Below, one piece after another: positions 14,191 to 58,588 of a stretch of 64,000 nt of DNA. Source of the DNA: a virus; IMG/VR virus record IMGVR_UViG_3300045988_082835. The stretch is one strand, 5' to 3'. The position numbers and the translations under genes are program-made. The first letter of the stretch is position 1, and every line of letters starts with the position of its first letter. A model generated the notes under the pieces. It did not search any database and was not told the DNA's origin. It was given only the letters and a program-made list of their open reading frames with translations.

Positions 14191-14232
14191 TATAGTATAA
14201 TATATTATATAGTAATATAAGAGAGGTATAAT

Positions 14233-17200
14233 ATGAGCTATTTTAATAATCATAGTCATACAGAGTTCTCTAATTTAAGACTTTTGGATTGCATAAATAA
14301 ACCAGAAGAGCTGATTGATAAAGCTATTGAAGTTGGATTAACGGGAATAGCTATCACGGACCACGAATCTCTCTCCGCGCATATGAGAGTAAATAAATAT
14401 GCGAAAAAAATCAAAGAAACTAATCCCAGTTTTGTTATAGCTCTTGGTAATGAAATCTATCTTACAGATACTAGAGATTTAGGACAAAGATACTATCACT
14501 TTATCTTAATTGCTAAAGACGAAATTGGTTATAGGGGACTAAAGGAGTTATCTTCTATCGCCTGGATGAATGGTTATTATGATAGAAGAATGGAAAGAGT
14601 TCCTTTGCTTAAATCAGAATTAAAAGATGTAATGCAGAGATTTAAAGGGCATATTATTGGCACTACTGCTTGTATTGGCGGTGAATTAGGTCAATCCATT
14701 TTAAATCTAAATAATTGTGAAGAAATAAAAGATGAAGTAAACGCAAAGCGTTATCATCAACAGATTGTAGATTTTATTACTTTCTGTATAGATGTATTTG
14801 GTCAAGATGATTTTTATATTGAGTGCGCACCAGCGTCATATCCTGACCAGATTATTGCAAATAAAAGAATGTTAAAAATTGCAGAAGCGTTCTCTGTTAA
14901 TATGTGTATCGGCACAGATGCCCACTATCTAACAAAAGAAGATAGATATGTCCATAAAGCATATTTAAATTCTAAGGGCGGAGAAAGAGAAGTCGATAGC
15001 TTCTATGAATTTACTCGTCTTATGGACGAAACTGAAACTAGAGAATTACTTCGTTTGAGCTATGAAGATAATATTATTGATTGGATTTTTAATTGCTCAA
15101 ACGAGATTAAAGATAAAATAGAATTTTACTCTCTGGAAAAGCATCAGTCTATTCCAGAAGTAGAAGTAACTGATTACCCTCCTACTGCATGGTGGGGAAC
15201 TAACAATGATTATGCAGATGAAATGTCTAAGTATCCAATCCTAAAATCACTTTTCACTTCCGATAATATTCAAGAGCGTTATTGGATAAATGAATGCTGG
15301 AAAGCGCTAGAAGCAAAAGGTATTGATTGGATTGATAGACCAGAATATCCAGAAAGACTTGAAGAAGAAGCAAGAGTAAAGAGAGTGATTGGAGAGAAAT
15401 TACAAACTTGTATGTTCGCTTATCCAAATACATTAAAACACTATGTTGATTTGTTTTGGGATTGCGGAAGTACGGTAGGTGCGGGTCGAGGTTCGGCTTG
15501 TGCAGCTCTTAATCATTATCTTCTTGGAATTACTCAGCTGGATCCAATCGAATGGGATCTTCCTTTCTGGAGATATATCAATGACAAAAGAACAGAACTT
15601 GGAGATATTGATTTGGACTTGGCTCCATCTAAGATTCAAAAAATCTTTGCTGAAATCAGAAAAGAACGAGGAGAATTAGGGCTAGTCCAAGTATGTACCT
15701 TCGGAACTGAGGGAACTAAATCTGCCATATTGACAGCCTGTAGAGGTTATAGATCTGACGATTATCCAGAAGGTATTGATGTTGATATGGCTCAATATAT
15801 GAGTTCCCTAATTCCGCAGGAAAGAGGCTTCTTGTGGCCCATTGAGGACGTCGTTAATGGAAACCCAGAAAAGGGACGTAAAGCAGTTACTACATTTGTA
15901 AATACTGTAAATCAATATCCCGGTCTTCTAGATATTATTACTAGAATTCAAGGGCTTGTAAATAAACGTTCTAGTCATGCATCCGGCGTTATTTTGTTTG
16001 ATGAAAATATTTTCGACAGTGCCGCAGTTATGAGAACACCAAAGGGTGCATTAATTACTCAATGGGATTTGCATGACCAAGAGGCTGCTGGTTCTGTTAA
16101 GTATGACTTTCTCTTAACAGCAGTTCAAGATATTATTATCCAAGCTGTTGAATTACTACAAGAAGATGGAGTTATCGAAAAAGATTTAACTTTAAGAGAA
16201 GTATATAATAAATATCTTCATCCATCTGTCTTGCCTCAAGATGATAAAAAAATGTGGGATGCTTTAGCTAATGGTGATGTTCTTGGATGTTTCCAATTTG
16301 ACTCAAGCGTTGGTGCACAAGCCGCGAAGAAGATTAAACCTCAAAATCCGCATGAGATGGCTGACGCGAATGGATTGATGCGCCTAATGACTTCCGAAAA
16401 AGGTGCTGAAACTCCAATGGAGAAGTATGTTCGATTTAAGAATAATATTTCTCTTTGGTATCAAGAAATGGACAGAGAAGGATTAACAAAAGAAGAACAA
16501 AGGATTCTCGAACCGCATTTCTTACGTTCTTATGGTGTTCCTCCTAGCCAAGAACAAATGATGACCATGTTACAAGACGAGAATATCTGCGGATTTACTC
16601 TTGAAGAAGCGAATGCTGCAAGAAAAATTGTTGGTAAAAAGCAAATGAATAAAATCCCAGAACTTAAAGAAAAGGTCTTAAACTCTGCGAAATCTCCCGC
16701 GTTAGGACATTATGTCTGGACTTATGGCATCGGCCCGCAAATGGGTTATTCGTTCAGTATTATCCATGCTCTTGCTTATAGTTTTGTTGGTATGCAAACT
16801 CTGTATCTTGCTACTCATTTTAATCCGGTATATTGGAATACGGCGTATCTGATTGTAAATAGTGGTGCTATTGATGAAGAAGAAGGAGAACAATCAGATT
16901 ATACAAAGATTGCAAAAGCAATAGGAGAAATTCGTAATGCAGGAATTAAGGTTTCCCTTGTGGATATTAATAATTCTGACTTTGGATTTAAGCCAGATGT
17001 AAAAAATAACTAGATTCTTTTCGGATTAAAGGGTTTGTCAAATGTTAATAATGAACTGATAAAAACTATTGTAGATAATCGACCCTATGTATCTCTTGTT
17101 GATTTCTATAACAGAGTTCATCCTAATAAACAAGCAATGATTTCTTTAATTAAAGGTGGAGGATTCGACCAGTTTAGTTCACGTATGGAGGCTATGATTC

Positions 17201-18135
17201 AATATATATGGATTACCTGCGATAAGAAAAAGAGAATTACTTTACAAAACCTTCCTGGGTTAATGAGATATGATCTTATCCCCTATGAAGAAAAGTTTGT
17301 GATGCCGAAAAGAGTGTATGAATTTAATAGGTATCTAAAAGCAGAGTGTAAAGATCCTTACAATGTAGCAAAATATAAACTCGACGAAAGAGCAATCACC
17401 TTTCTCGTTGAAATTGATTGCGAGGATCTATTGGAAACAGATAATCTAGCATGGTATATTGACATAAAAGCCTGGGATAAAATTTATCAAAGTTACATGG
17501 ACGTATTTAGAAATTGGATCTCTGAAAATAAAGAAACGATTTTAGATAATTTAAACACCACCATCTTTATGGAAGATTGGAAAAAGTATGCTTCAGGGAA
17601 CATATCTTCTTGGGAAATGGAATCTCTATGTTTTTATTATCACGACCATGAGCTAGCGAATATTAACAATAGCAAATATGGATTTGTAGACTTCTTTAGC
17701 CTTCCAGAAGAACCTCAAGTAGATAAAGTATTTAAAAAAGGTGCTTCTTTAATTCCTATTTATAAACTGCATAAAATCTGCGGGACGTGCATTGCAAAAA
17801 ATAAGGTGAAGAGTACTGTATATCTTCTTACAACAACTGGAGTAGTAGCAGTTAAATTCAGACAAGAATACTTTGCTTTGTTTGATAAACAAACCTTCCA
17901 AAGAAACGCAGATGGAACAAAGAGAGTTGTAGAGAAGTCTTGGTTTAATAGAGGTAATATGATTGTTGTGCAAGGGATTAGACGAGGCGATGAATTTGTA
18001 ACAAAGAAATATGCAAGTTCTGGAGGCCATCAACTTTATCACATTGATGAAATTATCAATGGAACAGATCTAATCTTGAGAAGCGAAAGAAAACAAGGAG
18101 AAGATGAAGATGAAGATAGTAGCATTAATGGGTGA
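14233..18135 (+). CDS. dnaE: DNA polymerase III alpha subunit, DnaE-like (PHP domain N-terminus), read through a TAG at 17011-17013
   Basis: ORFs 14233-17013 and 17035-18135 are in the same frame, separated only by TAG. The PHP motif HSHTEF...ITDHESL is present; ends at TGA. Confidence 0.75.
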
Positions 18136-18655
18136 AGCAGGAGGCGGTAAGGATACTATTCTCCATAGAATTATGGAGAAGTATCCTTCCTATTTCAATG
18201 AAATTATTAGTTGTACGACTCGACCTCCTAGGCAGGGAGAGAAAGAAGGAGTTAATTATCACTTCTTATCCGTTGAAGATTTTATTAGAAAAATCTTAAA
18301 TGGAGATATGCTAGAGGCTACTGAATTTAATGGTTGGCACTATGGAACAGATAGTCAAAGTCTAACAATAGATAAGATAAATATAGGAGTATTTAATCCA
18401 GAAGGAGTTAGATGCTTACAGGAAGATGAAAACATTGAACTGTATGTATTTTATGTGCGGGCCGCGGGTAAGTAGCGTCTTTTAAGATAGCTGAATAGAG
18501 AAGAAAATCCTGATGTAGACGAAATAATTAGAAGATACAAAGCGGATACAGAAGATTTTAGTTTTCTTAATGATATAAAATATATAACTCTTTAGAACAA
18601 TACCTTAGATGATATTGATATAGCTGTTGATACTATATTTGGACAATTCTATTAA
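18104..18655 (+). CDS. gmk: guanylate kinase family nucleoside-monophosphate kinase (two in-frame TAG)
   Basis: GEAGGGKDT P-loop and CTTRPPRQGEKEGVNYHFLS motif. The frame continues past the TAG at 18473 to TAA 18653-18655. Confidence 0.6.
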
Positions 18656-18721
18656 ATAATTATATTAGAAATCACAATATATAGTGTTCAACAAAAAATA
18701 TATTACAAGGAGTTGTATTAT

Positions 18722-20902
18722 ATGTTACAAATAAAGAAAAGAAATGGTATAGTAGTTCCATTTGATAGAGAACGGATTATCAACGCTATCAATAAAGCCT
18801 TCATCGAAGTAGATGGAGAATTATATGAAGATGATACTGCAAATGATATTGCAGATGAAATTAAGTATGCAGTAAAAACTTCTGACGATGTGGTTTCTGT
18901 AGAAAAAATTCAAGACATGGTGGAAGATTTTCTTATGAAGTCTGAGCGGAGAGACGTTGCTAAAGCATACATTAGATATAGATATAAAAGAGAAATTGCC
19001 AGAAAAGGGCAAGACGATTTTATGAAAGCCTTTTCTGCCAAAGTGCAGGGTTCAGATATAGAGAATCAAAATGCTAATGTTGATGAAATGTCATTCGGCG
19101 GAAGAGTTGGTGCAGCTTCTGATTTGCAAATGAAGAAGTACGCTCTTGATTATCTTGTATCTAATAAATCACGCGCAAACCATGAGAATAATGAGATTTA
19201 TATTCATGACTTAAATGCTTATGCAGTAGGTATGCATAACTGTCTTTCTATTCCTTTTGATGATTTGCTTGCAAAAGGATTCAATACAAGACAAACTGAT
19301 GTACGACCAGCGGGTTCAGTAAATACAGCTTTTCAACTTGTTGCTGTAATCTTTCAGCTTCAAAGTTTACAGCAGTTTGGTGGCGTTTCTGCTACACATC
19401 TTGATTGGACTATGATTCCTTATGTAAGAAAAAGTTTCTATAAACATTATATGGATGGATTGACATATATCGAACAAGTCATTAGCATGGATGATAGATT
19501 AAATAATCAACTGTCTATTGAAGATCCTATCTATAAGGAATTTAAAGGCGCATATTCATATGCTATCGCTATGACAGAAAAGGAAGTTCATCAAGCGGTT
19601 GAGGGAATGTATCATAATCTAAATACTCTTCAATCTCGTTCCGGCAATCAACTTCCATTTACTTCTATTAACTATGGAACTTGTACTCTTCCAGAAGGAA
19701 GAATGGTTACTAAAGCTCTTCTGGAAGTCTCTATTGAAGGACTTGGTAGACTTCACAAGACTTCAATTTTCCCCTGTGGAATTTTCCAATGTATGAAAGG
19801 TGTAAATAGGAAGCCTGGAGATCCAAATTACGATTTATTTAGATTAGCATTAAAGTCTACTGCCACTAGATTATATCCTAATTATGCTAATGTAGATTGG
19901 TCTGGCAATGCCGGATATGATGTAAACGATCCAAGTACATATTTCTCTACAATGGGATGTAGAACTGCTAATGGATTCGATATTAACGGCTTAAAGCAAC
20001 AGAAAGACGGTAGAGGAAATATCTGTCCTGTTACTATTATAATGCCAACAATAGCAATGGAAGCTAATGGTGACGTAGAAACTTTTATGAAACTTTTAGA
20101 TATTAAGATCGAAGAAGCGAAAGATATGCTTCTTGAAAGATTTGAATATATCTGTGCGCAACCTGCGGATTCGGCAAAATTCATGTATGAAAATGGCTTA
20201 ATGGCTGGATATGATGGAATTTCTACTCGAAGTGCTTTACAACATGGCACATTGAGTCTTGGGCAGATTGGATTGGCAGAAACTTTACAAATTCTTATTG
20301 GATGTGATCATACTGAGCCAGAGGGCATGAAATTAGCAAAAAGAATAGAGCAGTTATTTAAAGATAGATGCGCAGAGTATAAAGAAAAATATAGACTTAA
20401 TTTCGGAGTATATTATACTCCAGCCGAGAATCTTTGCTATACCTCTCTTAAAAAATTCCGTGATAAGTATGGTATCATTCCTAATGTAAGCGATAGAGAG
20501 TTCTTTACTAATTCTATGCACGTACCAGTATGGCACCAACTCTCTCCATTTGATAAAATTGATATTGAAAGTCAATTAACTGGATATTCTTCTGCTGGTT
20601 GTATTACTTATGTTGAGTTAGATACTGGCATGGAAAAGAATATTGATGCTATGGAGACATTAGTAAATTATGCTATGGATAAAGATATTCCATACTTTGC
20701 AATAAATGTTCCATGTGACACCTGCCTAAATTGCGGATATACTGGCGAGTTTAATGATAAGTGCCCTCAGTGCGGTAGTAAAGAAATTCAACAGTTAAGA
20801 AGGGTAACAGGCTATCTAACTGGTAACTACAAGACCGCCTTTAATAAAGGAAAGCAGGATGAAGTAAACAATAGAGTTAAACATGTGGGGTATATGGAAT
20901 GA
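18722..20902 (+). CDS. nrdD: anaerobic ribonucleoside-triphosphate reductase NrdD (class III)
   Basis: ATP cone at the N-terminus, C-terminal CxxC...CPQCGS zinc site and glycyl-radical RRVTGYL motif. There is no in-frame TAG. Confidence 0.8.
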   Translation: MLQIKKRNGIVVPFDRERIINAINKAFIEVDGELYEDDTANDIADEIKYAVKTSDDVVSVEKIQDMVEDFLMKSERRDVAKAYIRYRYKREIARKGQDDFMKAFSAKVQGSDIENQNANVDEMSFGGRVGAASDLQMKKYALDYLVSNKSRANHENNEIYIHDLNAYAVGMHNCLSIPFDDLLAKGFNTRQTDVRPAGSVNTAFQLVAVIFQLQSLQQFGGVSATHLDWTMIPYVRKSFYKHYMDGLTYIEQVISMDDRLNNQLSIEDPIYKEFKGAYSYAIAMTEKEVHQAVEGMYHNLNTLQSRSGNQLPFTSINYGTCTLPEGRMVTKALLEVSIEGLGRLHKTSIFPCGIFQCMKGVNRKPGDPNYDLFRLALKSTATRLYPNYANVDWSGNAGYDVNDPSTYFSTMGCRTANGFDINGLKQQKDGRGNICPVTIIMPTIAMEANGDVETFMKLLDIKIEEAKDMLLERFEYICAQPADSAKFMYENGLMAGYDGISTRSALQHGTLSLGQIGLAETLQILIGCDHTEPEGMKLAKRIEQLFKDRCAEYKEKYRLNFGVYYTPAENLCYTSLKKFRDKYGIIPNVSDREFFTNSMHVPVWHQLSPFDKIDIESQLTGYSSAGCITYVELDTGMEKNIDAMETLVNYAMDKDIPYFAINVPCDTCLNCGYTGEFNDKCPQCGSKEIQQLRRVTGYLTGNYKTAFNKGKQDEVNNRVKHVGYME

Positions 20903-26477: not shown

Positions 26478-27383
26478 TTAACACCCGCAATTACTCATGC
26501 TATAGCAACAGTTGGGGTTTGGTACTACATAAGCGGGAATTGGATTATCACGTCCTAATCTACGAATAAGCTCCGCAGTTTGAGCTTCTTGGTTAGCTGT
26601 AATAAAGTTATTTTGAGCTTGTTGAGAAGCAGCGAGACGAAGGGCCTGATTCTCGTTTTGCAAATCAGAGATTTTCTCCTGGCAGAGATAATCAAGAATT
26701 GCACGAGTTCCAGCATTTTGACTGTCAATAATATCACGAGTATTATTGGCCATAGAAGTCTGTAGTGCATTAGTATTAGTCGCTAGATTGTAGTTGACGT
26801 CGGCAAAACCTCTCTCAATCTGACGACCAGTCTCGCAGCAACAATCTGCAATTTGACGAGAAATAGCATTTTGATTTGTGAGATTATCAAAACTTGCTTG
26901 CTGAATTGCAGATTTTGTATCACAACAACAGTTAGAAAGCTGTGTAGCTAAAGCATTTTGACCCTGCATTAAAGCTACATTAGTGCTATTGAAACCTTGC
27001 TGTGTCTGATATCCAAGATTGCATACTGCGTTGTCTACTCCATGGAAACCATTTGTTAAAGCATTATTTAAAGCATATGTGCTATCACAGATTCCCTACT
27101 GGATAGAATTAATTCCAGACTGTAGATTTTGGAAAGCAAAACCTTCATTAATGTCTGCGCGAGTTGCCCAACCTTGACCAGAAGGAGAACCCAGACCATT
27201 ACTGTTGGCTCCATATCCACCAAAACCGCCAAATCCATTTCCCCATCCAGAGAAGCAGAATAAGAATAGAATTATAATCCACCAAGCTCCTCCGTCGTTC
27301 CAAATTCCGCCATTGTTACGATCATTGCCACCTGTAGCAGCAGCAATATCAGCTAAAGAGTATCCATTGTTAGAATTGAACAT
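26478..27383 (-). CDS. hypothetical Gly/Asn-rich protein with a transmembrane segment and repeated Cys-triplet motifs (about 301 aa, one TAG)
   Basis: ORFs 26478-26969 and 27096-27383 share a frame, joined across a TAG. AAAGGAGGAAC ribosome-binding site. WWIIILFLFCF transmembrane segment; NCCCDT and DCCCET repeats; CCYSMSNCGC at the C-terminus. Confidence 0.5.
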
Positions 27384-27654: not shown

Positions 27655-28080
27655 TTAAAAATCTAATTTTGGCTTTGATTCCTGCTATTGCGCTGTAGGC
27701 TATTTATTTGCCTATGGCGCAATTTTTTCTTTTAATTGAGCAAGTACGGTTTCAAATTCTTCTCTAGTAACAAACTAAGAAGGATTGACAACTGTTTCAA
27801 TCGGAATATTTTTTAATTCATAAACATTAAGTGTTGAAGTTCCATCTAAATTTATCTATTTTGTATATATTTTTTTATTAGCTAAATCAGGAAAGAAAAA
27901 TACAGAACCATCAAAGTCAATGCTAGTTGCCTTTACTTCTTCTATTGAAGAAACTGGGCGACCTTTAATTCCAATCTAGGGCTATTCCACATAGGGCATT
28001 CTTTGTTGCGGAGCATAAGGGATTGCCGCATACTAAGGTTGCTATTGTTGTGGTATATAGTATGGATAATTAACTGCCAT
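27655..28080 (-). CDS. hypothetical Gln/Pro/Tyr-rich protein (about 141 aa, about 9 TAG)
   Basis: AAAGGAGGTAAAACTATG; MAVNYPYYIPQQQQPQYAAIPYAPQQRMPYVEQPQIGIKGRPVSSIEEVK... Confidence 0.4.
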
Positions 28081-28124
28081 AGTTTTACCTCCTTTAAAAT
28101 ATTCCCTTGGCCTTTCATTATTAT

Positions 28125-28176
28125 ATAAAATTTTGGCAAAGATAATTTTACTATTTTGCCAAAATTTTTGCCAATT
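28125..28176. promoter_or_regulatory. cluster of TTGGCAA/TTGCCAA dyad motifs (operator or recombination-site candidate)
   Basis: ttttggcaaa-N14-tttgccaaaa perfect dyad plus tttttgccaatttta. Confidence 0.35.
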
Positions 28177-28216: not shown

Positions 28217-28606
28217 TCATGATGCTCTATTTTCATTAACCGCGGCTTCAATGAGATTAGTTAGGTAAGTATTTAAGTCGCCAGTTGTCTCAATAATATA
28301 TTGTTTTGCATCAGATGATAAGATCTCTAATACAGATTCCATAGTCTTATCAAATGCAATTTTTTGAGCCTCAGCATCAAAAGCACCTTGTTCTTTTAAG
28401 CTATTAACATAAGTCTGATTTGTAGCTATTACACATTTAGTAATAGTATCAAATATCATAGTGGTGTATTTCTAAGCTGTTTCATTCTCTGTCTTAGAAT
28501 TTAACTCATCTCGTTTAGCAGAGAGGAAATCTATGAGATATTTTGTTAAAATACCAAGCAGAGGAAGAATACAAAGCTAGAATATTTGAATAACAATTTC
28601 AGGCAT
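28217..28606 (-). CDS. putative holin (LL-H-like; N-terminal transmembrane helix, about 129 aa, two TAG)
   Basis: ORF 28217-28459 extends upstream in frame to the ATG MPEIVIQIFQLCILPLLGILTKYL with an AAAGGAGGAAT ribosome-binding site. Confidence 0.45.
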
Positions 28607-28657
28607 ATTAATTCCTCCTTTATATTATATATAAAACAAGAGGAAGATGGTTTAACT

Positions 28658-29285
<628 letters not shown>

Positions 29286-29289
29286 ATCA

Positions 29290-29352
29290 CCTCATAGATA
29301 TTTGAGAAATTGGCAATTTTATTTATTAATAATTGCCCAAAAATTTGGCAAT
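29290..29352. promoter_or_regulatory. TTGGCAATT repeat and dyad cluster immediately upstream of the recombinase gene
   Basis: aaattggcaatttt, aattgcccaaaaatttggcaatt, ccgcaattag. Confidence 0.35.
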
Positions 29353-29390
29353 TCCGCAATTAGATTTTTATATTATTTTATTATATAATA

Positions 29391-30071
29391 TATTTATAAA
29401 GAATAAGATTGTTCTTGGGATAATATAGATAGCATATTTTGAGCTAGATCGTCTGGTAAGTTTTCCGCTGAATAAGAGATATTTTCTATCTCTTCTCTTG
29501 ATGTAGAGCGTCTAATCCAAGTTAATAAATGATTACATAAAGTTGTATGATAGAGTTTATGCTATATGACAGATTGAGAAATATTCTTAATTTCCTCTGC
29601 TGTAAACATACGACAAAGGCTTTTATCCGCATGATAAGGATAAACAGAAGCTCCCTACTAAACAGCTGCCAATGCTGTTGTTAAGTTAATCTAGTCTGTT
29701 TCTTGTAAAGAGAAATGTTCTATTCCCTTTGAAGTGGTAATATCCATTCCTTCTATTATAGCTTTATTACAATAACTAGAGATTTGCTTTTCTTTTAATA
29801 GTTTTATATTTGGGAGTCTATCTTGCTCTATTTCTTCCTCCGTGCGTTCCATCGCCTAGCCGTCCACTAGCTTGTATCGGGGAATTCCATCGTTGATATA
29901 GATAGACTCTGGAAAATAGTTACCCTAAGCATGGTAATATTTATCGCCAAATCCGCTGTCAATCTCCGTGCCCCAGTCGGTGGAGACAAAGGCGGAGCTA
30001 TTGACGGCGGTAATGCGGCCTTGCTCGTCTGTCTGAACATAGACGATGTATGGTTCGAGTGTGTAGTCCAT
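29391..30071 (-). CDS. tail fibre assembly / chaperone-like protein (GC-rich N-terminal part, AT-rich C-terminal part with TAG)
   Basis: GAGGTGA ribosome-binding site; MDYTLEPYIVYVQTDEQGRITAVNSS...; frame reconstructed manually. Confidence 0.4.
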
Positions 30072-30083
30072 GGTGGTCACCTC

Positions 30084-31073
30084 TTATAGTTCGGCGGAAA
30101 GTGTAATCTTTGCCGTGCTGTTATTACTTCGTAAGAGCTGGGTAACTTGATTTGCTGGGCACCCAGACAATCCGTTGATTATCATGCTCACTGCGTTTGA
30201 GGACATCTGCTGGACGAAGAAATTTGATGCACCCGCTTCTACATTTATAAGTTGCCCATCGCCTCTCAGAAGCCAATTCCCTGCGGATGCGCATGTCGGC
30301 ATAATCCGCATCGTAGTAGGTGTTGGTATTGTGATTTCCGCCTCTGTTTCCGAAAAGAACGAACCAACCCCAATATTTGAAAACAATGTGTTGAATCCAG
30401 GCAAAACCAGTAGATACCTCTGGCACCGAGCCAGCTCCCCGGCATAATCCGGCGTCTCAAAGAGCTTCCAATTACTCTCCTCGTCCTGGTAAGCGAGGGT
30501 TTGGGTGGAGCCAAGCTCCAGCTTAGATGCTTGCAGGAGTACGCTGTTGCCTGCCGAGACGATAGCGCTACAAAAAAACCTGTCCGCCGTATTGTCATAA
30601 TTAAACTGGACAAATCCAAACGGTTTGATAATGTTTATGATATTTGTCCACGCACTCGGTTTTTCTTCCGGGGCAGACGTGGACATCGATAGCAGGTCTC
30701 CATCAACCAGTCCAGAGAGGCAAACTGTTTCTCCCAATAGACGGTCATTTGGAATGCCCAAAAATTGAATAAATTCCAGATTCCCTGTTGTAGCAGTTAA
30801 AGTGATTCCATCGCTGCCCAGGATTGCAGTGCCTTCCCCACTCAGCTTCCATCTGTCTATGAATCCCCCTGAACCGGCATGGCTCGTCTCCCCCCTCTGG
30901 TTAATGGGGAACTGCCCACCGCCCTGCTGGGAGCCGCCGCCCACGAAGTACCAGTTGTCCAGAAGGTTCCGGTTCGGTCGCCCACCGATGTTGCGGAGAG
31001 TTTTTTGGTAGTTGCTTAGGTTAGATAACTCCTTATTTGCTCCTTTAATCTAACCCTATAAAATACAATTCAT
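30084..31073 (-). CDS. tail fibre / receptor-binding protein with a compositionally foreign, TAG-free C-terminal 300 aa
   Basis: ORF 30084-30944 is 286 aa with no TAG and high GC. It extends in frame upstream across two TAGs in AT-rich sequence to the ATG MNCIL(Q)G(Q)IKGANKEL with an AAAGGAG ribosome-binding site. Confidence 0.5.
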
Positions 31074-31103
31074 AGCATAATTCTCCTTTCATCTAAAACT
31101 TTT

Positions 31104-31118
31104 GAAAAAGTACACTTT
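31104..31118. repeat. inverted repeat, left copy (hix-like dyad AAAGT-AC-ACTTT)
   Basis: Perfect 15-bp reverse-complement match to 31266-31280. Confidence 0.6.
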
Positions 31119-31265
31119 ACTGAACTTGGTCAAACATATATAATCAATCTATACTCTTTTTCAAGTATATTTGAAAAGAGTAAGATACTCACTTTTGGGA
31201 AAAGGGTTTCTTACCCTTTTCCCAATTTTTTGTTATCTAGGAAGAAAAAGTATTTTTCCTGTTAA

Positions 31266-31280
31266 AAAGTGTACTTTTTC
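31266..31280. repeat. inverted repeat, right copy (16-bp perfect palindrome aaaaagtgtacttttt)
   Basis: Perfect 15-bp reverse-complement match to 31104-31118. Confidence 0.6.
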
Positions 31281-31398
31281 TCGGAAATTGTTTATGGCTT
31301 TCTAAAAGACTGGAGCGAAGATCGCTTCCATCCTCGACCTTCTATCTAGTAGTTTAGATTTGTTTGAAACAATAGCTAGATAGAAGGAGGTAAATAAT

Positions 31399-33162
31399 TT
31401 GCCTAAATGTATTTTAGCTGAATAGGGTGGAAAAGGTGGAGGTTCTCTTTCTCTTGTAAAAATTGAAGTAACCACTCCCCCTACTAAAACGAGCTATCTT
31501 GCTGGTGATACTTTTAATCCCGCGGGAATGGTAGTCACCGCATCTTACGGCATGGACGGCGTTATTGTAACAACAGCAGAAGTAACTGGGTATCAAGTTA
31601 CTCCAAACCCTTTAACTGATGGGGTTACTAAAGTAACAATTACTTACTCTGAATTAGGAGAAACTTGTTAGACCACTCAAGACATTACTGTTATTCATAA
31701 ACTTCTTAGTATTTAGGTTACTACTAACCCAACTAAGACAACTTATGAATATGGAGACACTCTCCAAACAACAGGAATGGTAGTTACAGCAAGTTATTCT
31801 AATAGTACATCATCCGCGGTTACCGGGTATAGTTGCTCTCCAACGTCATTAACTGCGGTTGGCACCTAGAAAATTACTGTTTCTTACACAGAAAATGGAG
31901 TAACTCAGTCTGCTTCTTTCAATGTTACTGTTGAAAGAAAATCGGCGCCGAAACCAACATGGAAGAATAATCTTACCTATACTGGTAGTAGCCAATCAGT
32001 AAGTGGTGCTTCCTATTGGAATAACTTTAATACCACTTATATGACGATTGGCGGGACAACTTCCGCGACTAACGCTGGAACCTATACTGCTACTTTCACA
32101 CTAAATAGTAATTATAGATGGGCCGATGGAACTACATCAAATCTTGATGTAAATTGGACTATTAATAAAGCTGCTGGAAGTTTAACAGTAAATCCGACTT
32201 CTGTAGCTCTTGATGGAGATAACTATAGTGCCGGTGTAAAGGTTACCATTACTCGTTCTGGAGATGGAGCTATTAGTTATAGTCCAACTAGCGTTTCTGG
32301 TTTAACTTTGTCTTTAAGTGGAAATGTTCTTACAATTAAAGGTGATGGCAGTACGGCTATTTCTTCTACTACTATTACTATTAAAGTCGCAGAGGGAACC
32401 AACTATATAGCCCCAGGAAATAAGACTGTTACTGTAACAGCTAGCTATTGGGAGTGGGGTTCTGAAACTACTGTTGGTGATGCTAAATGGTGGGCTGGAT
32501 TAAAAACATGGGCTGCTAAAGCGTCATCTGGAGAGCGAAAAAATTGTGTAGGCAAGAAGAAACTCGTAAGTCTTTCTTCTGCGGTCCTCGGGGGAAATGC
32601 TGCTACTATGATTTGTATAGGTGCAGATTAGGATGGTACTGGTACTTTAACTTTCTAGACTGCGGGAACCTTGCCAAACGATCTTTAGTTTGGTGATAAT
32701 GCAATCTGGATTGGTTCAGATGCTAGAAAGCAATGTCAAAATTTCTATAACTACTGTAGTGCTAAAGCATCCATTAAAACCGTAAGTAAAGGTACTTGTC
32801 CTAATTATGGAAGCAGAAATGAAAGCGTAACTTATAATAATGAAACTGTATGGTTGCCCTCGGAAAGAGAAATGGGATTAGATTCTTATTCTCCTATCTC
32901 CACTTCTAATAGTACAACTTCTAAAGCCGAGTGTACTAAAGGGTATAACGCACCCTATAGTTATTACACAAGTAATAGTAAACGTGTTAAATATTATATG
33001 AATGCCAATGGTACGTTAACGAGTAACACGAACTGGTATTGGGAACGGTCCCGTTACTACAACAACTCGAGCAACGTTTGCCTTGTCGACTACGATGGGT
33101 CTGCGAACGACAACAACTACTACTACAGCAACGGGCTCGCGCCGGCTTTCGTTATCGGATAA
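31399..33162 (+). CDS. DGR target protein: Ig-like (Big_2) repeats with a C-terminal C-type-lectin-like variable region (TTG start; several TAG)
   Basis: AGGAGG ribosome-binding site. ORFs 32041 and 32854 are in the same frame. The C-terminus ...WYWERSRYYNNSSNVCLVDYDGSANDNNYYYSNGLAPAFVIG is encoded by the variable repeat. Confidence 0.7.
33046..33145 (+). repeat. DGR variable repeat (VR)
   Basis: 100 bp matching the template repeat at 33769-33868 with 10 mismatches. Every mismatch falls at a template-repeat adenine, in AAC codons. Confidence 0.8.
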
Positions 33163-33182
33163 CACAATAAAATAACAATTCG

Positions 33183-33206
33183 GGACAGTTAAGATTAAAT
33201 TGTCCA
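33183..33206 (+). other. hairpin downstream of the VR (candidate DGR target-recognition stem-loop)
   Basis: ggacagtt-aagattaa-attgtcc. Confidence 0.35.
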
Positions 33207-33243
33207 ACTAAAATTTTATATATTCAAGTGAGGGAGATTTTAA

Positions 33244-33738
33244 ATGTCTGTAAAAGTAAAAGATAGACACATATCAAAGCAAGATTGTCTTTATAAAGCA
33301 CGCGACTTAATGGGATATATTTTAGTCTTGACTCGTCCTAGAGAATATGATAAGGATGGAAAACAAATTTGCAAGCCTGGACTGCTTGGAGAGGGTCAAC
33401 CTCTTCAAGCGTTCGGGTATGATATAATTAAGTGCGGAAAGGGCTTACATGCTTGTTGTTATGAGGCGTGTAAGATAAATTTGAAAGACAAAGAAACCCT
33501 TGCAAAGAGAAATGACTATCATAATAAAGCACTAGAATATTGTGATAGTATATTTCGACAAATCGACCTATGTATTTATTAGTATGCTCAGAACAGCAAA
33601 AAGAAGAGACGCTCTTTTGAACATCTAGCTAGATTGACAAAGAGAGTAAAAGAGTCAATCCAAGATAGAAAGAATAGAGATAAACTTATAACAGAGCATA
33701 GATATTCAGCTCCTAAAAGATATAGGAGAGGTCGATAA
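33244..33738 (+). CDS. avd: DGR accessory variability determinant (Avd)-like protein with a highly basic tail (one TAG)
   Basis: Lies between the target gene and the template repeat. ORF 33244-33582 continues in frame to ...KKKRRSFEHLARLTKRVKE...RYRRGR. Confidence 0.55.
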
Positions 33739-33768
33739 TATTTTTCTGCGGTTAAGTTCTGTATCTTT

Positions 33769-33868
33769 CGGTCCCGTAACTACAACAACTCGAACAACGT
33801 TTGCAATGTCAACAACGATGGATCTGCGAACAACAACAACTACAACAACAGCAACGGGCTCGCGCCGG
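33769..33868 (+). repeat. DGR template repeat (TR)
   Basis: Adenine-rich (AAC-rich) donor sequence. The overlapping ORF 33801-34022 is spurious. Confidence 0.8.
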
Positions 33869-34179
33869 ATTAGATGGAGCTATCATGTTGCGAGTTAAGC
33901 TGCGGAGCAGCGCAAACGAGCAACGCCTAAATAGTACCCCAGAGTATATTATTATCCATCTAATTAAGGTTTACTCTGGATTGCACTCACTTTATGTGGG
34001 GAAGAGATTGAGAGACCATTAAAGAGCTTTGCTCTACAACTATCGAATAATATACTATAGGTAGATCTGCCTTTTCATCTAAGGAGAACTTAACCATTTC
34101 ACTGAAAAAGTGGATAAAGTAAGACTGTAGACGTGGAGCTCGAGTAGCTACCACTATAGCTACATGATAAGGAGAAAGT

Positions 34180-35397
34180 ATGTCTGAAATAAAACAAGAT
34201 ACTGCTTTCGAGTGTTTTTGTAGTTTTGACGCTATGTATGATGCGTCTTATAAGGTATGTCGAAACGTTCGATGGAAAGATAGTACAATTAATTTTGAAG
34301 AGAATAGGATAGAAACAATTTTAAAAACAGAAGCTGACCTGCGAGCGTGTGAATACGAACAGCTTGTGTTTAGTTGTTTTTCGATAATCGAACGAGGCAA
34401 GCCAAGAGACATAAGAGCGTGTCATATCAACGACAGATTGGTGCAAAATGCATTATGTGAACAAGTTTTGCTACCAGAATTAACTCCTAGATTTATCTAT
34501 GATAATTGTGCAACCCTAAAAGGAAAGGGAATAGACTTCGCTCTGAAAAGGGTTAAGAAACATCTTCAATAGGCTCATAAAGAGTATGGGTTAGGAAAAG
34601 ATTTTTATGGATTAAGAATTGATATACAAAAATATTTTGATTCTATTGACCATGAATCTTTAAAGAAAGCAGCTAAACGACTAATAAAAGATAAACTTGT
34701 TTATTAGTTATGTTGTTACTTAATAGATACATTTTCTTTTAAGCTAACAAAAGATACTTCACCTATGCCAAATAAAATATATTACACAAGTAAACGACAC
34801 AAGTATGAAAGAGTTAATGTTACTCATTTCTAGCCTGGTCGTAAGTATTATGAATATGAAAGAAAGAGCCTAGGATTAGGAAGTCAAACATCACAATTAT
34901 TCGCATTGCTAGCATTGAACGAAATTGACCACTTCATAAAAGAAGAGTTACATATTAAGTATTATGGTCGTTATATGGATGATTTATACTTACTCCATAA
35001 TGACAGTAAATACTTGGCCGAATGTGAGAGACAAATAGAAATTCGCTTAAATAAACAAGGATTAAAGATGAATAAGAAGAAAACTACTATCACTAGAATT
35101 TCTCCTATTCACGAAGACGGTAAACGTCATGCTCCTTTTAAATATTTAAAGTGGAATTTTCATCTCACAGAAACTAATCATATAATACAACTTCCTTTCA
35201 AGAAAAAAGTAGCTCATTAGTGCAGAAAATTAAAGAAAATGCAAGCTTTATGGTTAGCTAATAAAATTTCAACTGAAGAAGTTTAGAAATCTTATTAGGG
35301 TTGGAGAGCACATATTTCTAAAGGAACTTGCTTTTATATAATTCAGGACATGGACAATTATTTTCGTTCATTATTCAAAGGAGTTGAAATAAAGTAA
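34180..35397 (+). CDS. DGR reverse transcriptase (about 5 in-frame TAG)
   Basis: ORFs 34180 and 34906 are in the same frame. RT motifs FYGLRIDIQKYFDSIDH and YGRYMDDLYLL (YxDD) are present. AAGGAGAAAG ribosome-binding site. Confidence 0.75.
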
Positions 35398-36059
35398 TGT
35401 ATATTCTATTAAATAGAGAGAATGTAGTAGTTGATATTCTTTCAGAAGCACGTTACATTAAACTGCAATCCTCAAACGGTATTGTCGTTGCCTGCGAGGA
35501 AGAAGAGGGAACTGGGGTTATCGGCTCAGACAGTGATACTCATTACACTCTAGTCAAAGCCGATGTATTAAATCAACCTAATGCTGTTACAGTATTAGAG
35601 TTAGAAACAATTCCATCAGATGTCATTCCTAACTATTCAAAATATAATCAAGAAGATGGTACTTTCATCGCTGATTTAAATTAGGCAAAATATGATAAAC
35701 AAGAGGAAAACAAGAAACTATTCGCAGAGTATCTTGCTACCCACCCATTAACTTGGGTTGATGGAAAAGAATATGGAATTACGTAGGAGGACCAGTCTGA
35801 GATTAGTTTGAATCTCAATCAATATTAGGTGGCGGTAGCTGCTGAAGTAGAAAATCCTACGCTTGAGTGGCACGCTAGACACGAAGAGTGCGTACCATGG
35901 ACTTTAGAGCAATTATCTGCTCTAAGTTTAGCTATTTCTAATGCGGTATATCAGAAATATCATTTAATGCAAGAATATAAAACCTAGATATTTGGAGCTA
36001 ATTCGATAGATGAATTGAAAGCTATTGAGTTGAATTATGAAGATACCGACAGTGAGTAA
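35397..36059 (+). CDS. tail fibre assembly-like protein (about 220 aa, about 5 TAG)
   Basis: ORF 35397-35684 continues in frame. The C-terminal region TLEWHARHEECVPWTLEQLSALSLAISNAVYQKY is of tail-fibre-chaperone type. Confidence 0.4.
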
Positions 36060-36495
36060 AAATATAATTCTATTCGTAGTGGGAGGAACTCTATATTACA
36101 GTATAGAGTTCCTCTATAAAACTTTTATTAGCCTTGGAGTTTGTCATTGGTCTATGTTTTTGCTAGGTGGCTTATGCTTTCTATTAATTGGACTAATGAA
36201 TGAGAATATTCTTTGGGAAGAATCTATCTTAACTCAAGGAGTAAAAGGATCTTTAATTATAACTGCTTTAGAATTAATTTTTGGATTAGTTTTAAATATA
36301 AGACTAGGTTTAGGTATTTGGGATTATTCTAACATTCCACTTAACTTTATGGGGCAGATTTGCTTGCCCTTCTCTATTGCATGGTTCTTCTTGAGCCTTT
36401 TAGCAATAGTGTTAGATGATTACCTTAGATGGAAATGGTTTGGAGAAGAAAAACCGCATTATCACTTATACAGTAGACCTCCTTGCGAGGAATAA
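36037..36495 (+). CDS. hypothetical four-helix membrane protein (152 aa)
   Basis: ORF track. Confidence 0.45.
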   Translation: MKIPTVSKNIILFVVGGTLYYSIEFLYKTFISLGVCHWSMFLLGGLCFLLIGLMNENILWEESILTQGVKGSLIITALELIFGLVLNIRLGLGIWDYSNIPLNFMGQICLPFSIAWFFLSLLAIVLDDYLRWKWFGEEKPHYHLYSRPPCEE

Positions 36496-36545
36496 AAAAA
36501 ATAGGGAGAACCTTAATTAAAAGGTTCTCCCTATTTTTTTTTATT
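36493..36545. terminator. bidirectional terminator
   Basis: atagggagaacctt-aattaa-aaggttctccctat flanked by an A8 run and a T9 run. Confidence 0.7.
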
Positions 36546-37323
36546 TTACATCAATAATAACAATAGCAATATCGCTTTCTGGTTTATCTTTTGTGTAGAA
36601 AGTGATTCCAGATCCTACAGTTGCATCAGCATGATCAATTTTACTATATTCCTCTAAATTAGAAGTATAAGTAATGATAGGTGGCACATTTCCCGCTTTT
36701 CCGCAAGTTAAAGCAGTATTAGAGTATGTCTATGTATACATATCTCCGTTCAATACCCATGATGCCGCGGCAAGAGTGGTTGTATAAGCTACAGATGTGC
36801 TACCAGTAATTTGGTTATCTGTTTCTGACTTGCTATATACATCCAAATTAGTTCTGGCTCGCGCGGCTGTCGTGCCTCCAGTTCCTCCAACCTAGATTGG
36901 AAGTGTACCAAATGTAGGTGCACCCGCAGTAATCGCGTATAAAGCACCAGCACCTTGTAAACCAGCCACACCATTTTCCGCATTTCCGATTACTAAACTG
37001 CCGGCTGCAATTTCAATCATTTTTAATGCTTCTGTTCCATTTCCTACTAGCAAAGCATTAACAGTTAATGTATCATGTCCAGTTCCACCCTACGCTACAG
37101 TAGCAGTCATATTTTTAAGAAAAATGTCGTCAATATCAATTTCAGTAACATTATTCTTTAAAACTTGAGCAGCATAGGCATTGACCTGTAGACGTCCGCC
37201 CTCTATATTACTTACATCAATAAATAAATTTCCTGTGTCCTCGCAGAAATAGGCGTATCCTTCATGAAGAGGTACATCATTAAGATCCTCTTCTGCGCCT
37301 TTAAAAATCTTAAATAAAGCCAT
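36541..37323 (-). CDS. tail fibre-like protein (260 aa, three TAG)
   Basis: ORF 37090-37323 (AAGGAGG ribosome-binding site) continues to ...VGGTGGTTAARARTNLDVYSKSE..., matching the GGTGATTAAGAR(A/T)NLG motif of phage fibres. Confidence 0.5.
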
Positions 37324-37356
37324 TTTAGGCCCTCCTTTATACTCTCTAAATATAAA

Positions 37357-49755: not shown

Positions 49756-49780
49756 AATAGGGGAGGAAATCTCCCCTATT
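49756..49780 (-). terminator. hairpin after the tape measure gene (terminator or attenuator)
   Basis: aataggggag-gaaat-ctcccctatt. Confidence 0.4.
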
Positions 49781-52700
49781 ATTCTTTTCTTCTATTCGCC
49801 CATTGAGTAGCATCATCCGCCAAACTACGAATAGCATCTTGAATTTCATCAGAAGATGTCGCATTGGGGAATTCAACTCGTTCAATATTTATATTTGGCT
49901 AAACCACATTATCTGTCGGCGCAATCTAGGTATTAGTTCCCAATCTAGATGCCATAATACTAGAAATAGATAGTGCGTTCCCGTCAAGAGTTTTCTCAAT
50001 AGAGGCTATAAAACTAGGTCCAAAGGCTCTCATAGCAGAGACCGCCGCCAAGATATTTTTCGTATCCTCTTGATTTAAAACTAACTCTTTTTCATGTAAG
50101 AAAGCTAATTTAGCATTATCAAATTCTCCAGTATATCCTCCAGTATCGAAGCCACTTATCTAACTTTCTTTTAGCCATCCATAAGCGGAATTATTGGACT
50201 GTACATGGATTGGATAAGGTCTACCCTTAGCTATGTTTGTTATTCTAACCTTTTTACCTGGACCGCGTCTACCAGCAGGATCAGTGCCATAAGAATCATG
50301 ATAGTAAGTTCCACCAGTATAAATAACTTCATCTCCTACTTCGGGGATTCCATTACCTCCTCCAGTTCCACTACTGGAAGATCCACTACCACTATTGCCT
50401 GAGCTACCTTTATCAGTATCAGAAGATTGACTTGAATCAGAAGAAGGCAAGTCATCTTTATCTATACTTCCTGCGCTTTCTATTGTGTTACCAGCAGCTC
50501 TAGCGGCTTCTTCAAGCGCTCTTATATATTCTCTGACTGAATCGGCCATATCTAAATACTCTTGACTTAAATCTTGAATAGTGCTTATCTATTCTAACAT
50601 CTAAGTAACGGCATTTGATCCAGCCTCAGAGCACAAATCAGTAGAAGTTGAAACATCGTCGATATAATCTTTTAAATCATCGAGACTTGTTCCAGTCTAA
50701 TCGGCTACTCCAGAAACAGTAGTTTGATAATCTTCCATCGCTCCGCTAGCTTCATCCATTGCATTAGATAAAAACTCTTCAAAGTTACCAGCATTAGCGG
50801 TCATATTGGCTAAGTCTTTCGCAAATACATTATCAAATAGGTCAATAAGTTTTGTATTACTTCCTACTATATCTTGAATCTACTCGTTATCTGATAGTAA
50901 CAAATCAATAATGCTAGAGCCAGAGTTAGCTATAATATCTTGAATTTCTTGACTTGTAATTCCAGTTAGGTCACTTACCTCGTCTCCCGCAACAATAGCC
51001 ATATCAATTAAAGCTTTATTGCCGGCTTCGGTCATATCCTTAATAGCGATCTATTTTTCGCTCTCTAAGTCCTTAACCTTCTGCGTATAATAAGAATAAA
51101 TTTCTTGCGCGCGAGCAGATCTTTCTTCATCAGTCAAGGTCATATCAGAATAGATTTCTTTTATCTTATCTTGACACTCTTGCCAAGTAGAAATAATCTC
51201 TCCTGTAACATCCTCTACCTGTTGCTTTGCTATATTATACCATTCGTTCTCCGCATCAAGTAAATTCTGCTCTGCGTCAGCTATCTGGCTCGCATCTGCG
51301 GTGTATTGATAATTCCAGTTACCTTGACTATCTCTCACTAGTCTAAGTTGATTTTTCGCATTTTGAGCATCTTCAAGTGCCATCTAAGCCTAAAGAACAT
51401 TATACTTAGCTTCGAGAATTTCTAAATCGTATTCAGATAAGGTATTGTTCTCTCTACGTATATCAATTTCCTCTTGTAGCTATTTTAACTAATCTTTCAT
51501 CTTAGAGTTAGTAGCCTTATCAATATCCTGTTGTAGTTTATTATACCAAGAAGATACCTCATACGCTTCATTTACTTTATCTAAATATCTATCCTCTTGT
51601 TCGATATAATGATCGAATTTGTCTTGTAGTAGATCTAATCCTACTCCACCAGAAACAGCCTATCCAAATTCATATACTGCTCTTTCAATAGCTTGAGTAT
51701 ACATCTCCTAAGCAGTCTCCATAGCAGCTTGCGCGGAACTTAACATAGCCTCTTGTGCTTCATTAAATTCTTCTAGTAGAGCATCTCTATTAGCTTTTAA
51801 ACCATCATATGCAGGATCGGTTTCATCTCCGCCTAATGCATCTAATGCAGCTTGAGCTTCCAATAGTTCTTGACGGATTCCGTCATACCATTGTTTATTC
51901 AGCTATGCATTGGCGACCTAAGCCTTCATAGTTTCTTCGCTTACTTCTTGAAGCTATTCAAATCCTTCTTCGGTCTTATATGTAACTCCCTAAAGAGCAT
52001 ATAATTCTTTGATGAGCCCTAGAACAGATTCATTATGATCAAGCTAATCAGTAAAAGCAGCAAATCTTTCTGACGCGGCATCTAATGCATCTGGTAGCAT
52101 TTCTTCAAGACCTTCTACCCAATCAAGCAAAGCCTCTGCGGTAGAAATCATTTTACCTTGTAAGTCAGATAACTTACTTACAATCTCATCAATATTAGTC
52201 GCATCTGTGGCATTAGCTAATTCTTCCTGATAACTTTTAAGGGCTTCTTCATAGCTCTTGATGATTTCAATGTTCTCGTTCATACTGTTTTTATCAATAC
52301 GAGCGACTTCCATTCCATGAGTTAGCTCATCACCAAAAGATTCTGCTATTTGTCTTGTTAGCTCATTAACCGCATCTTTAGCATCTTTTATATCTATCGC
52401 AACTTCAAGTTTATATTCAATCTAATTTAATCTATTATCTGCAATATTTCTTTCTAGCTCTTCTTGCTCATCTTTTACATCTTGAATCTTGTCAAGAGTT
52501 TCTTCATATTGAGCTAAAGCGTCCTAACGAGCCTAGAATAATTCATCAGCAACTTCTTTTTGTAATTGCCAACTATCATATTCTGCCTATCTAGCCTCCT
52601 ATTCATCTTTAGTAAGACTGCTAAACATTAATAAGAAAGCGTTGTAATCGGTTAAGAAGTTATTATTATAATCATCAACAATAGATTGAAGAACGTCTTG

Positions 52701-58478: not shown

Positions 58479-58588
58479 AGTCCTTTTCCTCCTTTATCTC
58501 TACGATAAAACAAATAAGGCTCTTGAGAATTATATCTTCTCAAGAGCCTTTTAATTCTCTATCTAATTTGTAAATTTTATTAGATTTA

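Follow-up and report, generated by a model that had tools for sequence, protein, structure and literature searches.

A TAG-recoded gut phage carries a GC-rich tail-fibre cassette probably imported from a standard-code temperate phage

We analysed a stretch of 64,000 nucleotides (nt) of virus DNA (IMG/VR record IMGVR_UViG_3300045988_082835; called the window in the following), part of the genome (about 147 kb, 35% GC) of an uncultivated gut phage in which TAG is translated as glutamine. Our subject is a locus of two minus-strand genes, the tail-fibre gene g1 (30084..31073) and the DUF4376 gene g2 directly downstream of it (29394..30071), both of which are crossed by an island of GC-rich DNA. 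This locus seems to be a recombination hot spot, and the copy present in the window a 1.2-kb cassette recently imported from a standard-code temperate phage; we estimate the probability of this reading at about 0.85. That the transfer was an import is suggested by the stop codon of the fibre, the absence of TAG, the GC content of third codon positions (GC3) and the distribution of the fibre family. Related contigs and loci are designated L001-L064 and protein homologues P0001-P0008.

The GC-rich island and its counterpart in temperate phages

In 200-nt windows the GC content, 25-36% in the surroundings, reaches 46-61% over the stretch from about 29800 to 31100. A maximum-likelihood segmentation of 28500-32500 with two breakpoints placed the edges at 29835 and 31000, with 50.4% GC inside (29836-31000) and 31.5% and 37.1% outside. 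When all 64 kb were scanned in 300-nt windows (mean 34.7%, standard deviation (sd) 4.3%), the island peaked at 54.7% and was the sole run of this kind, other runs passing 45% staying at or below 46%. Third codon positions followed: GC3 was 0.54 in the fibre part (z = 8.7) and 0.60 in codons 1-82 of g2 (z = 10.4), as compared to 0.253 +/- 0.033, with a maximum of 0.35, in 44 native open reading frames (ORFs). The sharp compositional shift claimed in a preliminary description of this DNA was borne out by these values and persisted on recalculation of both sliding-window GC and codon usage.

The extent of the island, in contrast to its existence, had to be corrected. It spans codons 17-329 of g1 and codons 1-82 of g2. 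The native AT-rich 5' end of g1 (31026..31073, MNCILQGQIKGANKEL), near-identical in recoded relatives, comprises 16 codons and not the 40 initially given. Likewise, the TAG-free stretch of the fibre measures 321 codons rather than 286 amino acids (aa); the 286-aa ORF merely begins at an internal GTG, to which standard-code gene callers cut the fibre, splitting g2 as well. Two TAG codons had been seen in the fibre's N-terminal portion and are indeed present, at codon 6 (31058-31056) and codon 8 (31052-31050), as the only ones of g1. The description of the whole island as TAG-free holds for its g1 part and fails for g2, where TAG occurs at codon 49 (29927-29925), within the interval first given, and codon 72 (29858-29856). 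The downstream gene was rightly described as GC-rich at its 5' end with TAG in its 3' part, the 5' part bearing TAG as well. For the 313 g1 codons that are homologous to standard-code phages, finding zero TAG has P = 0.0035 by rate and P = 0.0003 when computed over their 16 glutamine codons.

Near-identical DNA was found in standard-code phages. The best protein match of the fibre, P0001 (96% aa identity), belongs to contig L001 (58% GC). Positions 30971..29826 of the window align to L001 without a gap and with 95.1% identity over 1146 nt (95.1-95.2% including L062-64). By stretch, identity to L001 was 93% in 30975-30760, 99.1% (785/792) in 30759-29968 and 73% in 29967-29826; with L062-64 the 792-nt core 30759..29968 agreed at 786 of 792 positions. 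L062-64 are longer contigs of the phage of L001, the longest of 55-56 kb. They encode a tape measure protein, a Gly-rich tail protein, a 343-aa fibre, a 124-aa g2-like protein and an XkdX-like product, and further have genes for lysis (Amidase_3 lysin and holin) as well as a tyrosine integrase and a helix-turn-helix repressor, from which we conclude that this phage is temperate. It uses the standard code, since in L001 TAG ends two genes and occurs in frame in none. A second standard-code contig, L024 (55% GC), showed 94.1% identity to window 31025..30415, the matching sequence being embedded in a 517-aa fibre.

Both junctions fall inside genes. On the 5' side the alignment puts the junction near 31026-31027, which is codon 17 of g1 ("LSNLSN"), and upstream of it no similarity to standard-code contigs was detected. 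On the 3' side all nucleotide matches to standard-code loci stop at 29826-29830, which puts the junction at about 29826-29835. The rest of the 64-kb window yielded a single 108-nt match of 72% to the temperate phage and nothing else. The exchange of a cassette, as postulated in the preliminary description, is therefore supported by a near-identical segment in a standard-code phage with junctions inside both genes at the composition breakpoints. The identity of the core speaks for the recent date that had been proposed, and the GC content of L001 and L024, together with the use of TAG as stop in L001, for the proposed donor of higher GC and standard code.

Judged from its sequence, the island is a patchwork of differing ages and not the product of a single event. 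The conserved box at its 5' end (30880..31025, LSNLSNYQKTLRNIGGRPNRNLLDNWYFVGGGSQQGGGQFPINQRG) appears to be an older, partly AT-shifted acquisition and may serve as upstream crossover anchor; its identity was 84-86% to L024 and L001, 96.6% to the sibling L002, and 79-90% (blastn) to loci in Oscillospiraceae metagenome-assembled genomes (MAGs) and to the recoded L017, L019 and L023. For the following block (30879..30525) identity reaches 97.7% with L001 and 97.2% with L024. Codons 1-35 of g2 (29968..30071) form the 3' end of what would be the newest exchange block and are contiguous with the 99% core; past 29968 the agreement with L001 drops from 100% to 73%. They are followed by an apparently older GC-rich tract, codons 36-82 (29826..29967), which contains the two TAG codons at 29927-29925 and 29858-29856 and is 73% identical to L001 and L024 and 99% to L002. 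The remaining 3' part of g2 (29394..29825), which holds the DUF4376 domain, is native: it is AT-rich (GC3 0.21), has TAG at codons 127, 138, 139 and 170, is 88-97% identical to recoded relatives, and probably provides the downstream anchor.

Fibre domains, relatives and conserved boxes

Read through TAG, g1 has 329 codons plus TAA. Its ATG at 31073 has AAAGGAGAA just upstream; a scan for sigma-70 promoters gave no enrichment over shuffles and no clear promoter for g1. The protein matched phrog_4492 'tail fiber protein' (E=1.6e-9) over positions 798-1075 of 1096, the profile's C-terminal portion. Many of its 1653 homologues have collagen-like or YadA-stalk N-termini, as do P0002 and P0003, which carry a 210-aa N-terminal shaft with a YadA_stalk match and, in P0003, collagen-like repeats. 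An AlphaFold model built on residues 17-329 (predicted local distance difference test score, pLDDT, 81) predicted a disordered N-terminus and two beta-sandwiches, with the conserved linker and its short helix between them. In BFVD the model matched 'Tail fiber protein', 'Tail protein' and 'Carbohydrate-binding, CenC-like' entries with E values of 1e-18 to 1e-10. Matches in the PDB were weak and resembled carbohydrate-binding modules (E ~1e-4, template modelling (TM) score ~0.2), the low TM score being explained by the two domains of the query. Family matches and model together point to a distal tail fibre or receptor-binding protein, which would have a role in adsorption. In the temperate phage the homologue of g1 is the last gene of the tail module and stands directly ahead of the lysis genes. 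In the window g1 adjoins a diversity-generating retroelement (DGR) cassette, which puts about 5.5 kb between g1 and the tail module ending at 36541. A tail-fibre-like protein of 260 aa is encoded at 36541-37356.

The first predicted beta-sandwich comprises residues ~64-187 (30525..30879; model strands 48-171) and would constitute an independently exchangeable block. It is followed by the inter-domain linker box (30414..30524, KLELGSTQTLAYQDE..ELARCQRY), the columns of which are nearly invariant in an alignment of 70 sequences and which is a candidate internal crossover site. The C-terminal beta-sandwich, residues ~221-329 (30087..30413; model strands 205-310), ends with LSAEL in front of the stop codon TAA (30084..30086). 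Among standard-code homologues P0002, P0003, P0006 and P0008 pair the same domain 1 with different domains 2.

The start of g2 lies 13 nt from the fibre stop, and its 5' part co-transfers with the fibre tip. The gene has 225 codons plus TAA and encodes an N-terminal domain followed by DUF4376 (PF14301; residues 92-186, E=4.4e-7, 30.8 bits against a cut-off of 25); homologues of equal length number more than 2000. By positional analogy the product might be an assembly chaperone. In a Pfam scan at E<=0.1, DUF4376 was the sole match and no Tfa or Caudo_TAP (PF02413) or T4 gp38/gp57-type domain was found. PHROG matches (phrog_24451 for residues 10-91, and phrog_1348 and phrog_1807 'tail fiber protein') were annotated as 'unknown function' or 'tail fiber protein' and included no assembly-chaperone family.

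Comparison with recoded relatives revealed how variable the locus is. The siblings L002-L004 are 100% (575/575) or 99.3% identical to the window upstream of the island and 96.4-96.5% downstream of it. Within the island they are 98.7% identical in 30524-29968 and just 42% in 30879-30525, and this divergent block coincides with domain 1 of the structural model. Pairwise comparison of the window, L002 and L001 gave identities of 98.7-99.1% in 30524-29968. The divergence of the cassette between recoded and standard-code phages is hence no greater than that between recoded siblings, and smaller than that of the native DNA directly downstream. The next relatives, L017, L019 and L020, have flanks of 88-95% identity and the same synteny with different fibres, and their 3' junctions lie at differing g2 codons. 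The fibres of L017 and L019 have 45-46% GC, a GC3 of 0.46 and are TAG-free after codon 8; that of L020 has 41% GC, a GC3 of 0.35 and four TAG within its first 60 codons. More distant recoded relatives have fibres whose composition is close to native; in L021-23 the fibres have 42-45% GC. For recoded IMG/VR contigs (~40% GC) on which a fibre ORF was recovered upstream of the DUF4376 gene, values were 35-43% GC, a GC3 of 0.24-0.36 and 1-6 in-frame TAG. As close relatives differ from each other and distant ones are AT-rich with TAG, a fibre that is strongly GC-rich and free of TAG represents a derived and variable state. A segment conserved and equally GC-rich in all relatives would have contradicted the claim of acquisition; close relatives instead have other GC-rich fibres at this place, and more distant ones fibres of 35-43% GC with TAG.

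Similarity to diverged fibres returns in conserved nucleotide boxes, at 31025-30880, at 30524-30414, at the g2 start and at 29850-29826, and these are plausible crossover sites. The linker box gave nucleotide matches of 73-81% to L006, L007, L017, L019 and L023, within diverged fibres at this place only. Breakpoints coincide with the boundaries of the beta-sandwich domains as predicted by the model. We envisage that whole beta-sandwich domains may be traded by homologous recombination with fibre genes of standard-code temperate phages of the same hosts. The crossover boxes would be NLLDNWYF..QFPINQRG, the inter-domain linker KLELG..CQRY, and the g2 start with its ERTEEEI box. The shared hosts are most likely Oscillospiraceae, and the exchange probably takes place when the recoded phage infects a lysogen. 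As outcome, adsorption specificity would be retargeted to that of the temperate phage.

Apparent traces of the code boundary

The window phage is clearly TAG-recoded (code 15). ORFs of at least 150 aa sum to 7,237 aa in the standard code and to 20,310 aa with TAG read through, whereas the control sums were 8,258 aa for read-through of TGA, a small gain, and 15,881 aa for TAA. Native genes contain a mean of 18 TAG per 1000 codons, and TAG accounts for 40% of glutamine-type codons. TAG density is gene-specific, with 0-1 per 1000 codons in the genes for Pol III-alpha-like and NrdD proteins (e.g. 14221-20902), and 25-58 per 1000 in many minus-strand structural genes (e.g. 49779-58493), one of which, an ORF of 2905 aa, has 103 TAG codons. 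Such a pattern agrees with the division into early and late genes that has been reported for recoded phages. In g2, TAG codon 127 aligns with an invariant glutamine, also in an NCBI Agathobaculum protein, and codons 138/139 read QQ in two of six aligned homologues, one of them the same Agathobaculum protein, which supports the assignment of TAG to glutamine. Codons 72 and 170 are at variable positions of the alignment. Codon 49 corresponds to glutamine in 4/4 standard-code homologues, and a CAG-to-TAG difference at a glutamine position inside DNA derived from the standard code is independent support for the assignment.

A concentration of in-frame TAG in structural genes, aligned with glutamine, is what has been described for TAG-to-Gln gut phages, namely crAss-like phages, the 'gemstone' clades (Borges et al., 10.1101/2021.08.26.457843; Peters et al., PMC9523058) and the Phass-1 group (PMC10607447); a term search of these reports brought up no statement on recombination or horizontal transfer linking recoded to standard-code phages. 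Our phage is distantly related to Phass-1 (53% aa identity in one structural protein) and to large siphoviruses of Enterococcus, Lactococcus and Bacillus. The table of Phass-1-related genomes includes the metagenomic BK048656_ctOa11 of 147,880 bp and 35.33% GC (PMC10607447). Among deposited phage genomes the island found no match (blastn, sensitive mode), and queries with 6.8 kb around it and with the replication-gene block returned only short matches of 64-79%. By these searches the phage has no close relative among deposited genomes.

The passage from one code to the other would have left its marks at the end of g1. The junction of the temperate phage reads GAA CTA TAG GAG GTG ACC ACC ATG, that of the window CTA TAA GAG GTG; in other words, L001 and L062-64 have CTA TAG GAGGTGACCACC ATG and the window has CTA TAA GAGGTGACCACC ATG. 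The TAG stop of the donor type belongs to the next gene's Shine-Dalgarno sequence, AGGAGG, and shares the reading frame of that gene's ATG. In a phage that reads TAG as glutamine such a stop would give a fusion of fibre and g2, and TAA is for this reason most simply seen as a derived and necessary change, probably under selection on the stop. The fibre stop is TAA or TGA in all recoded relatives examined. The ending LSAEL-TAG was also found in L024 and in the Clostridium MAG prophage L006, and a TAG stop common to three standard-code lineages (L001/L062-64, L024 and L006) marks TAA as the derived state. The arrangement TAGGAGG, with the fibre stop inside the Shine-Dalgarno sequence, is common and was seen in L001, L006, L008, L012 and L013. 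Since the stop is embedded in this way, TAGGAGG cassettes are incompatible with TAG suppression unless the stop is altered.

The start of g1 and the edges of the island carry further traces. L002-5, L017 and L019 have kept the 16-codon leader, including TAG codons 6 and 8, in identical or near-identical form, and the retention of two TAG in this native leader suggests that synthesis of the fibre would still depend on suppression. Synonymous sites in 31025-31000 that are G/C in L024 are A/T in the window, and in 29967-29826 codon 49 of g2 is TAG in the window and CAG in L001. Like the TAA stop and the retained leader, these differences are consistent with adaptation to the recoded translation system, the older edges of the island drifting toward AT and gaining TAG at a glutamine position.

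Direction of transfer, alternatives and significance

As GC content dips at the fibre tip of the temperate phage too, composition alone leaves the direction of transfer ambiguous. We nevertheless consider it unlikely that the exchange ran the opposite way, with a TAG-free cassette that evolved in, or had long resided in, the recoded lineage and was exported to the temperate phage. Only the chance absence of in-frame TAG would have made such an export possible. Export would account for the low GC of the tip in temperate contigs (44-55%, with flanks of 60-68%) and for the mutual identity of about 99% between the window, L002 and L001 in 30524..29968, which shows no clear nesting. It is at odds with the GC3 of the module, 0.54-0.60, which makes it an outlier by 9-10 sd above the native genes of the window and yet is enclosed by the range of temperate phage genes (0.31-0.77). 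Export also conflicts with the TAG stop in L001/L062-64, L024 and L006, and with the native fibres of the wider recoded family, which hold 1-6 TAG. Furthermore, the fibre family occurs overwhelmingly on higher-GC contigs, with hundreds of homologues on these and in MAGs, including those of Oscillospiraceae. Substitutions specific to the window went toward A/T in 5/7 cases, a small number. A scan of GTDB genomes gave a best match of just 44% aa identity and pointed toward Oscillospiraceae/Clostridia MAGs without indicating a species.

Several observations weigh against import from the temperate phage. The GC trough of the L001/L062-64 fibre tip, 44-55% amid 60-68%, is one of them, and both phages could have obtained the cassette from a third lineage, one with about 50% GC. 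Several native, probably early, genes are TAG-free as well, which makes the absence of TAG by itself weak evidence. ARAGORN detected no tRNA gene of any kind in the 64-kb window of the ~147-kb genome, and thus no suppressor tRNA in this part. Only about 45 residues precede the first domain of the 329-aa fibre, leaving its attachment unexplained. Finally, the fibres of L017 and L019 found short linker matches or nothing in IMG/VR, and when proteins were searched with the L017 fibre, the best match other than itself had 67% aa identity and no near-identical standard-code counterpart appeared; for want of such a donor, repeated recent import is shown for one variant only.

The neighbourhood of g1 and g2 brings to mind the invertible host-range switches of the Mu Gin and P1 Cin type, in which case the island would be an invertible segment flipped by the neighbouring invertase. 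A serine recombinase or DNA invertase is indeed encoded at 28658-29359 on the minus strand (Resolvase Pfam 4.8e-31; phrog_125 1.8e-52). The order fibre, accessory gene, serine recombinase mirrors S-U-gin of Mu and is kept in every relative examined, and the 5' junction lies at the boundary between constant and variable parts of the fibre. We find this explanation very improbable, however. Repeat searches at three stringencies found no inverted repeats flanking the segment, and self-BLAST no inverted repeat of at least 25 nt in the window or in 43 related loci. There is no read-through ORF of at least 150 aa on the plus strand in 29394-31073, and so no alternative cassette; g1 and g2 fill the segment and leave 35 nt to the invertase. 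The orientation was identical in every relative retrieved, and the identity of 99% to another phage explains the origin of the island directly. An invertible segment was rejected on these grounds, namely the lack of inverted repeats, of an alternative cassette and of orientation polymorphism.

The invertase gene itself carries 7 in-frame TAG. A palindromic motif, ATTGCC(C/A)AAAAATTTGGCAA, is present at 29332-29351, upstream of the invertase gene, and again at 28156-28176, upstream of the gene at 27655-28176, with extra TTGCCAA half-sites at 29300-29350. The motif might function as a promoter or operator specific to the phage.

Two remaining explanations are barely credible. A native gene that was never transferred, and owes its composition to amino-acid content or to selection such as for expression before the suppressor is made, could draw on the Gly-, Ala- and Ser-rich protein and on the TAG-free native genes mentioned above. 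It is at synonymous third positions, though, that composition shifts most (GC3 0.54-0.60 as opposed to 0.25), the breakpoints are inside genes, TAG at codons 6 and 8 speaks against suppressor-independent expression, and 786/792 nt of identity to an unrelated temperate phage exclude convergent composition. An assembly chimera of recoded and temperate phage, for which the conserved boxes might have misled the assembler, is excluded by the same junctions in contigs of at least four independent samples (L002-L005) and by the recurrence of the 329-aa recoded form in dozens of independent contigs, the largest of 153 kb, and fits poorly with a lineage-specific TAA stop, TAG codons and an AT-shifted edge that the temperate phage does not have.

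On its other side the fibre gene is flanked by a complete DGR at 31306-36059 on the plus strand, divergent from g1. The element targets a protein of 619 aa (in relatives with Big_3 and DUF6273) whose C-terminus holds the variable repeat (VR, 33046-33148); the Avd-like ORF (33244-33738), the template repeat (TR, 33769-33871) and the reverse transcriptase (34171-35397) follow on the same strand. All VR/TR mismatches (11/11) are at adenines of the TR. The DGR is missing from the relative L019. With a DGR beside the fibre locus, the phage has two adjacent systems of host-range diversification. Between the fibre gene and the DGR target, at 31195-31225, a perfect 13-bp hairpin (TTGGGAAAAGGGT..ACCCTTTTCCCAA) is followed by a T-run on the plus strand, an orientation that is odd for a terminator in a divergent intergenic region. 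A perfect 21-bp inverted repeat (AAAAAAAATAGGGAGAACCTT / AAGGTTCTCCCTATTTTTTTT) at 36494-36541 sits where the convergent genes on the DGR side meet the tail module and probably acts as a terminator in both directions. On the minus strand, 26478-27383 encodes a 301-aa protein with a Gly/Asn-rich N-terminus, a hydrophobic segment and several CC/CCC motifs, among them the C-terminal CCYSMSNCGC. All relatives have this protein in conserved form, and no family match is recorded for it.

Modular exchange of fibres at conserved linkers is in itself textbook knowledge. Haggard-Ljungquist in 1992 and Sandmeier in 1994 are said to have described the exchange of fibre-tip and assembly-gene cassettes among Mu, P1, P2, lambda and the T-even phages. 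The locus studied here resembles those cases in that the fibre C-terminus moves together with the 5' part of the downstream gene, the junctions are inside genes, and host-range determinants become mosaic. It differs from them in the codes of donor and recipient, which are not the same, in having a DUF4376 protein instead of a Tfa/Caudo_TAP chaperone, and in its short stand-alone tip of 329 aa instead of a long fibre. Exchange of receptor-binding protein (RBP) head domains in lactococcal 936/P335 phages was reportedly found by Duplessis and Moineau in 2001. There, too, beta-sandwich heads are swapped at conserved linkers and breakpoints are domain boundaries, as for domain 1 here, but no sequence relationship to the lactococcal RBPs was detectable, and the partners in our case are a ~147-kb recoded and a ~55-kb temperate phage. 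With Mu G/Gin, P1 C/Cin and e14 Pin the locus shares the gene order fibre, accessory gene, serine invertase, whereas the defining inverted repeats, alternative cassette and orientation polymorphism of these systems were not found. What appears undescribed is the crossing of the code boundary with conversion of the stop, a kept TAG leader and the onset of CAG-to-TAG change. A literature search, limited in scope and no proof of absence, found no earlier report of fibre exchange between codes.

A more speculative possibility, which we hold with less than even confidence, is that divergence of the code lets genes pass between phages in one direction only, like a valve, and that this locus displays the minimal steps of a crossing. 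Standard-code cassettes would enter a phage that reads TAG as glutamine freely once the TAG stop is converted; at the fibre stop the change from TAG to TAA took one base from the downstream Shine-Dalgarno sequence. After drift from CAG to TAG, as at codon 49 of g2, the cassette could not return. The TAG codons 6 and 8 of the leader may then serve as a portable translational lock that would place imported tips under suppressor-dependent late control. If this were true, recoded lytic phages would continuously harvest host-range modules from resident prophages, and a shared tip would be a direct marker linking an uncultivated recoded phage family to its hosts.

In conclusion, if the cassette was imported as we propose, a phage with a natural alternative code still has access to the gene pool of the standard code, which bears on the idea of recoding as a genetic firewall. 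The one change that the new code would require, from a TAG stop to TAA, is visible at the nucleotide level. The finding also offers a host link for an uncultivated recoded family, as its tip is essentially that of a temperate phage whose fibre family occurs in Oscillospiraceae MAGs.

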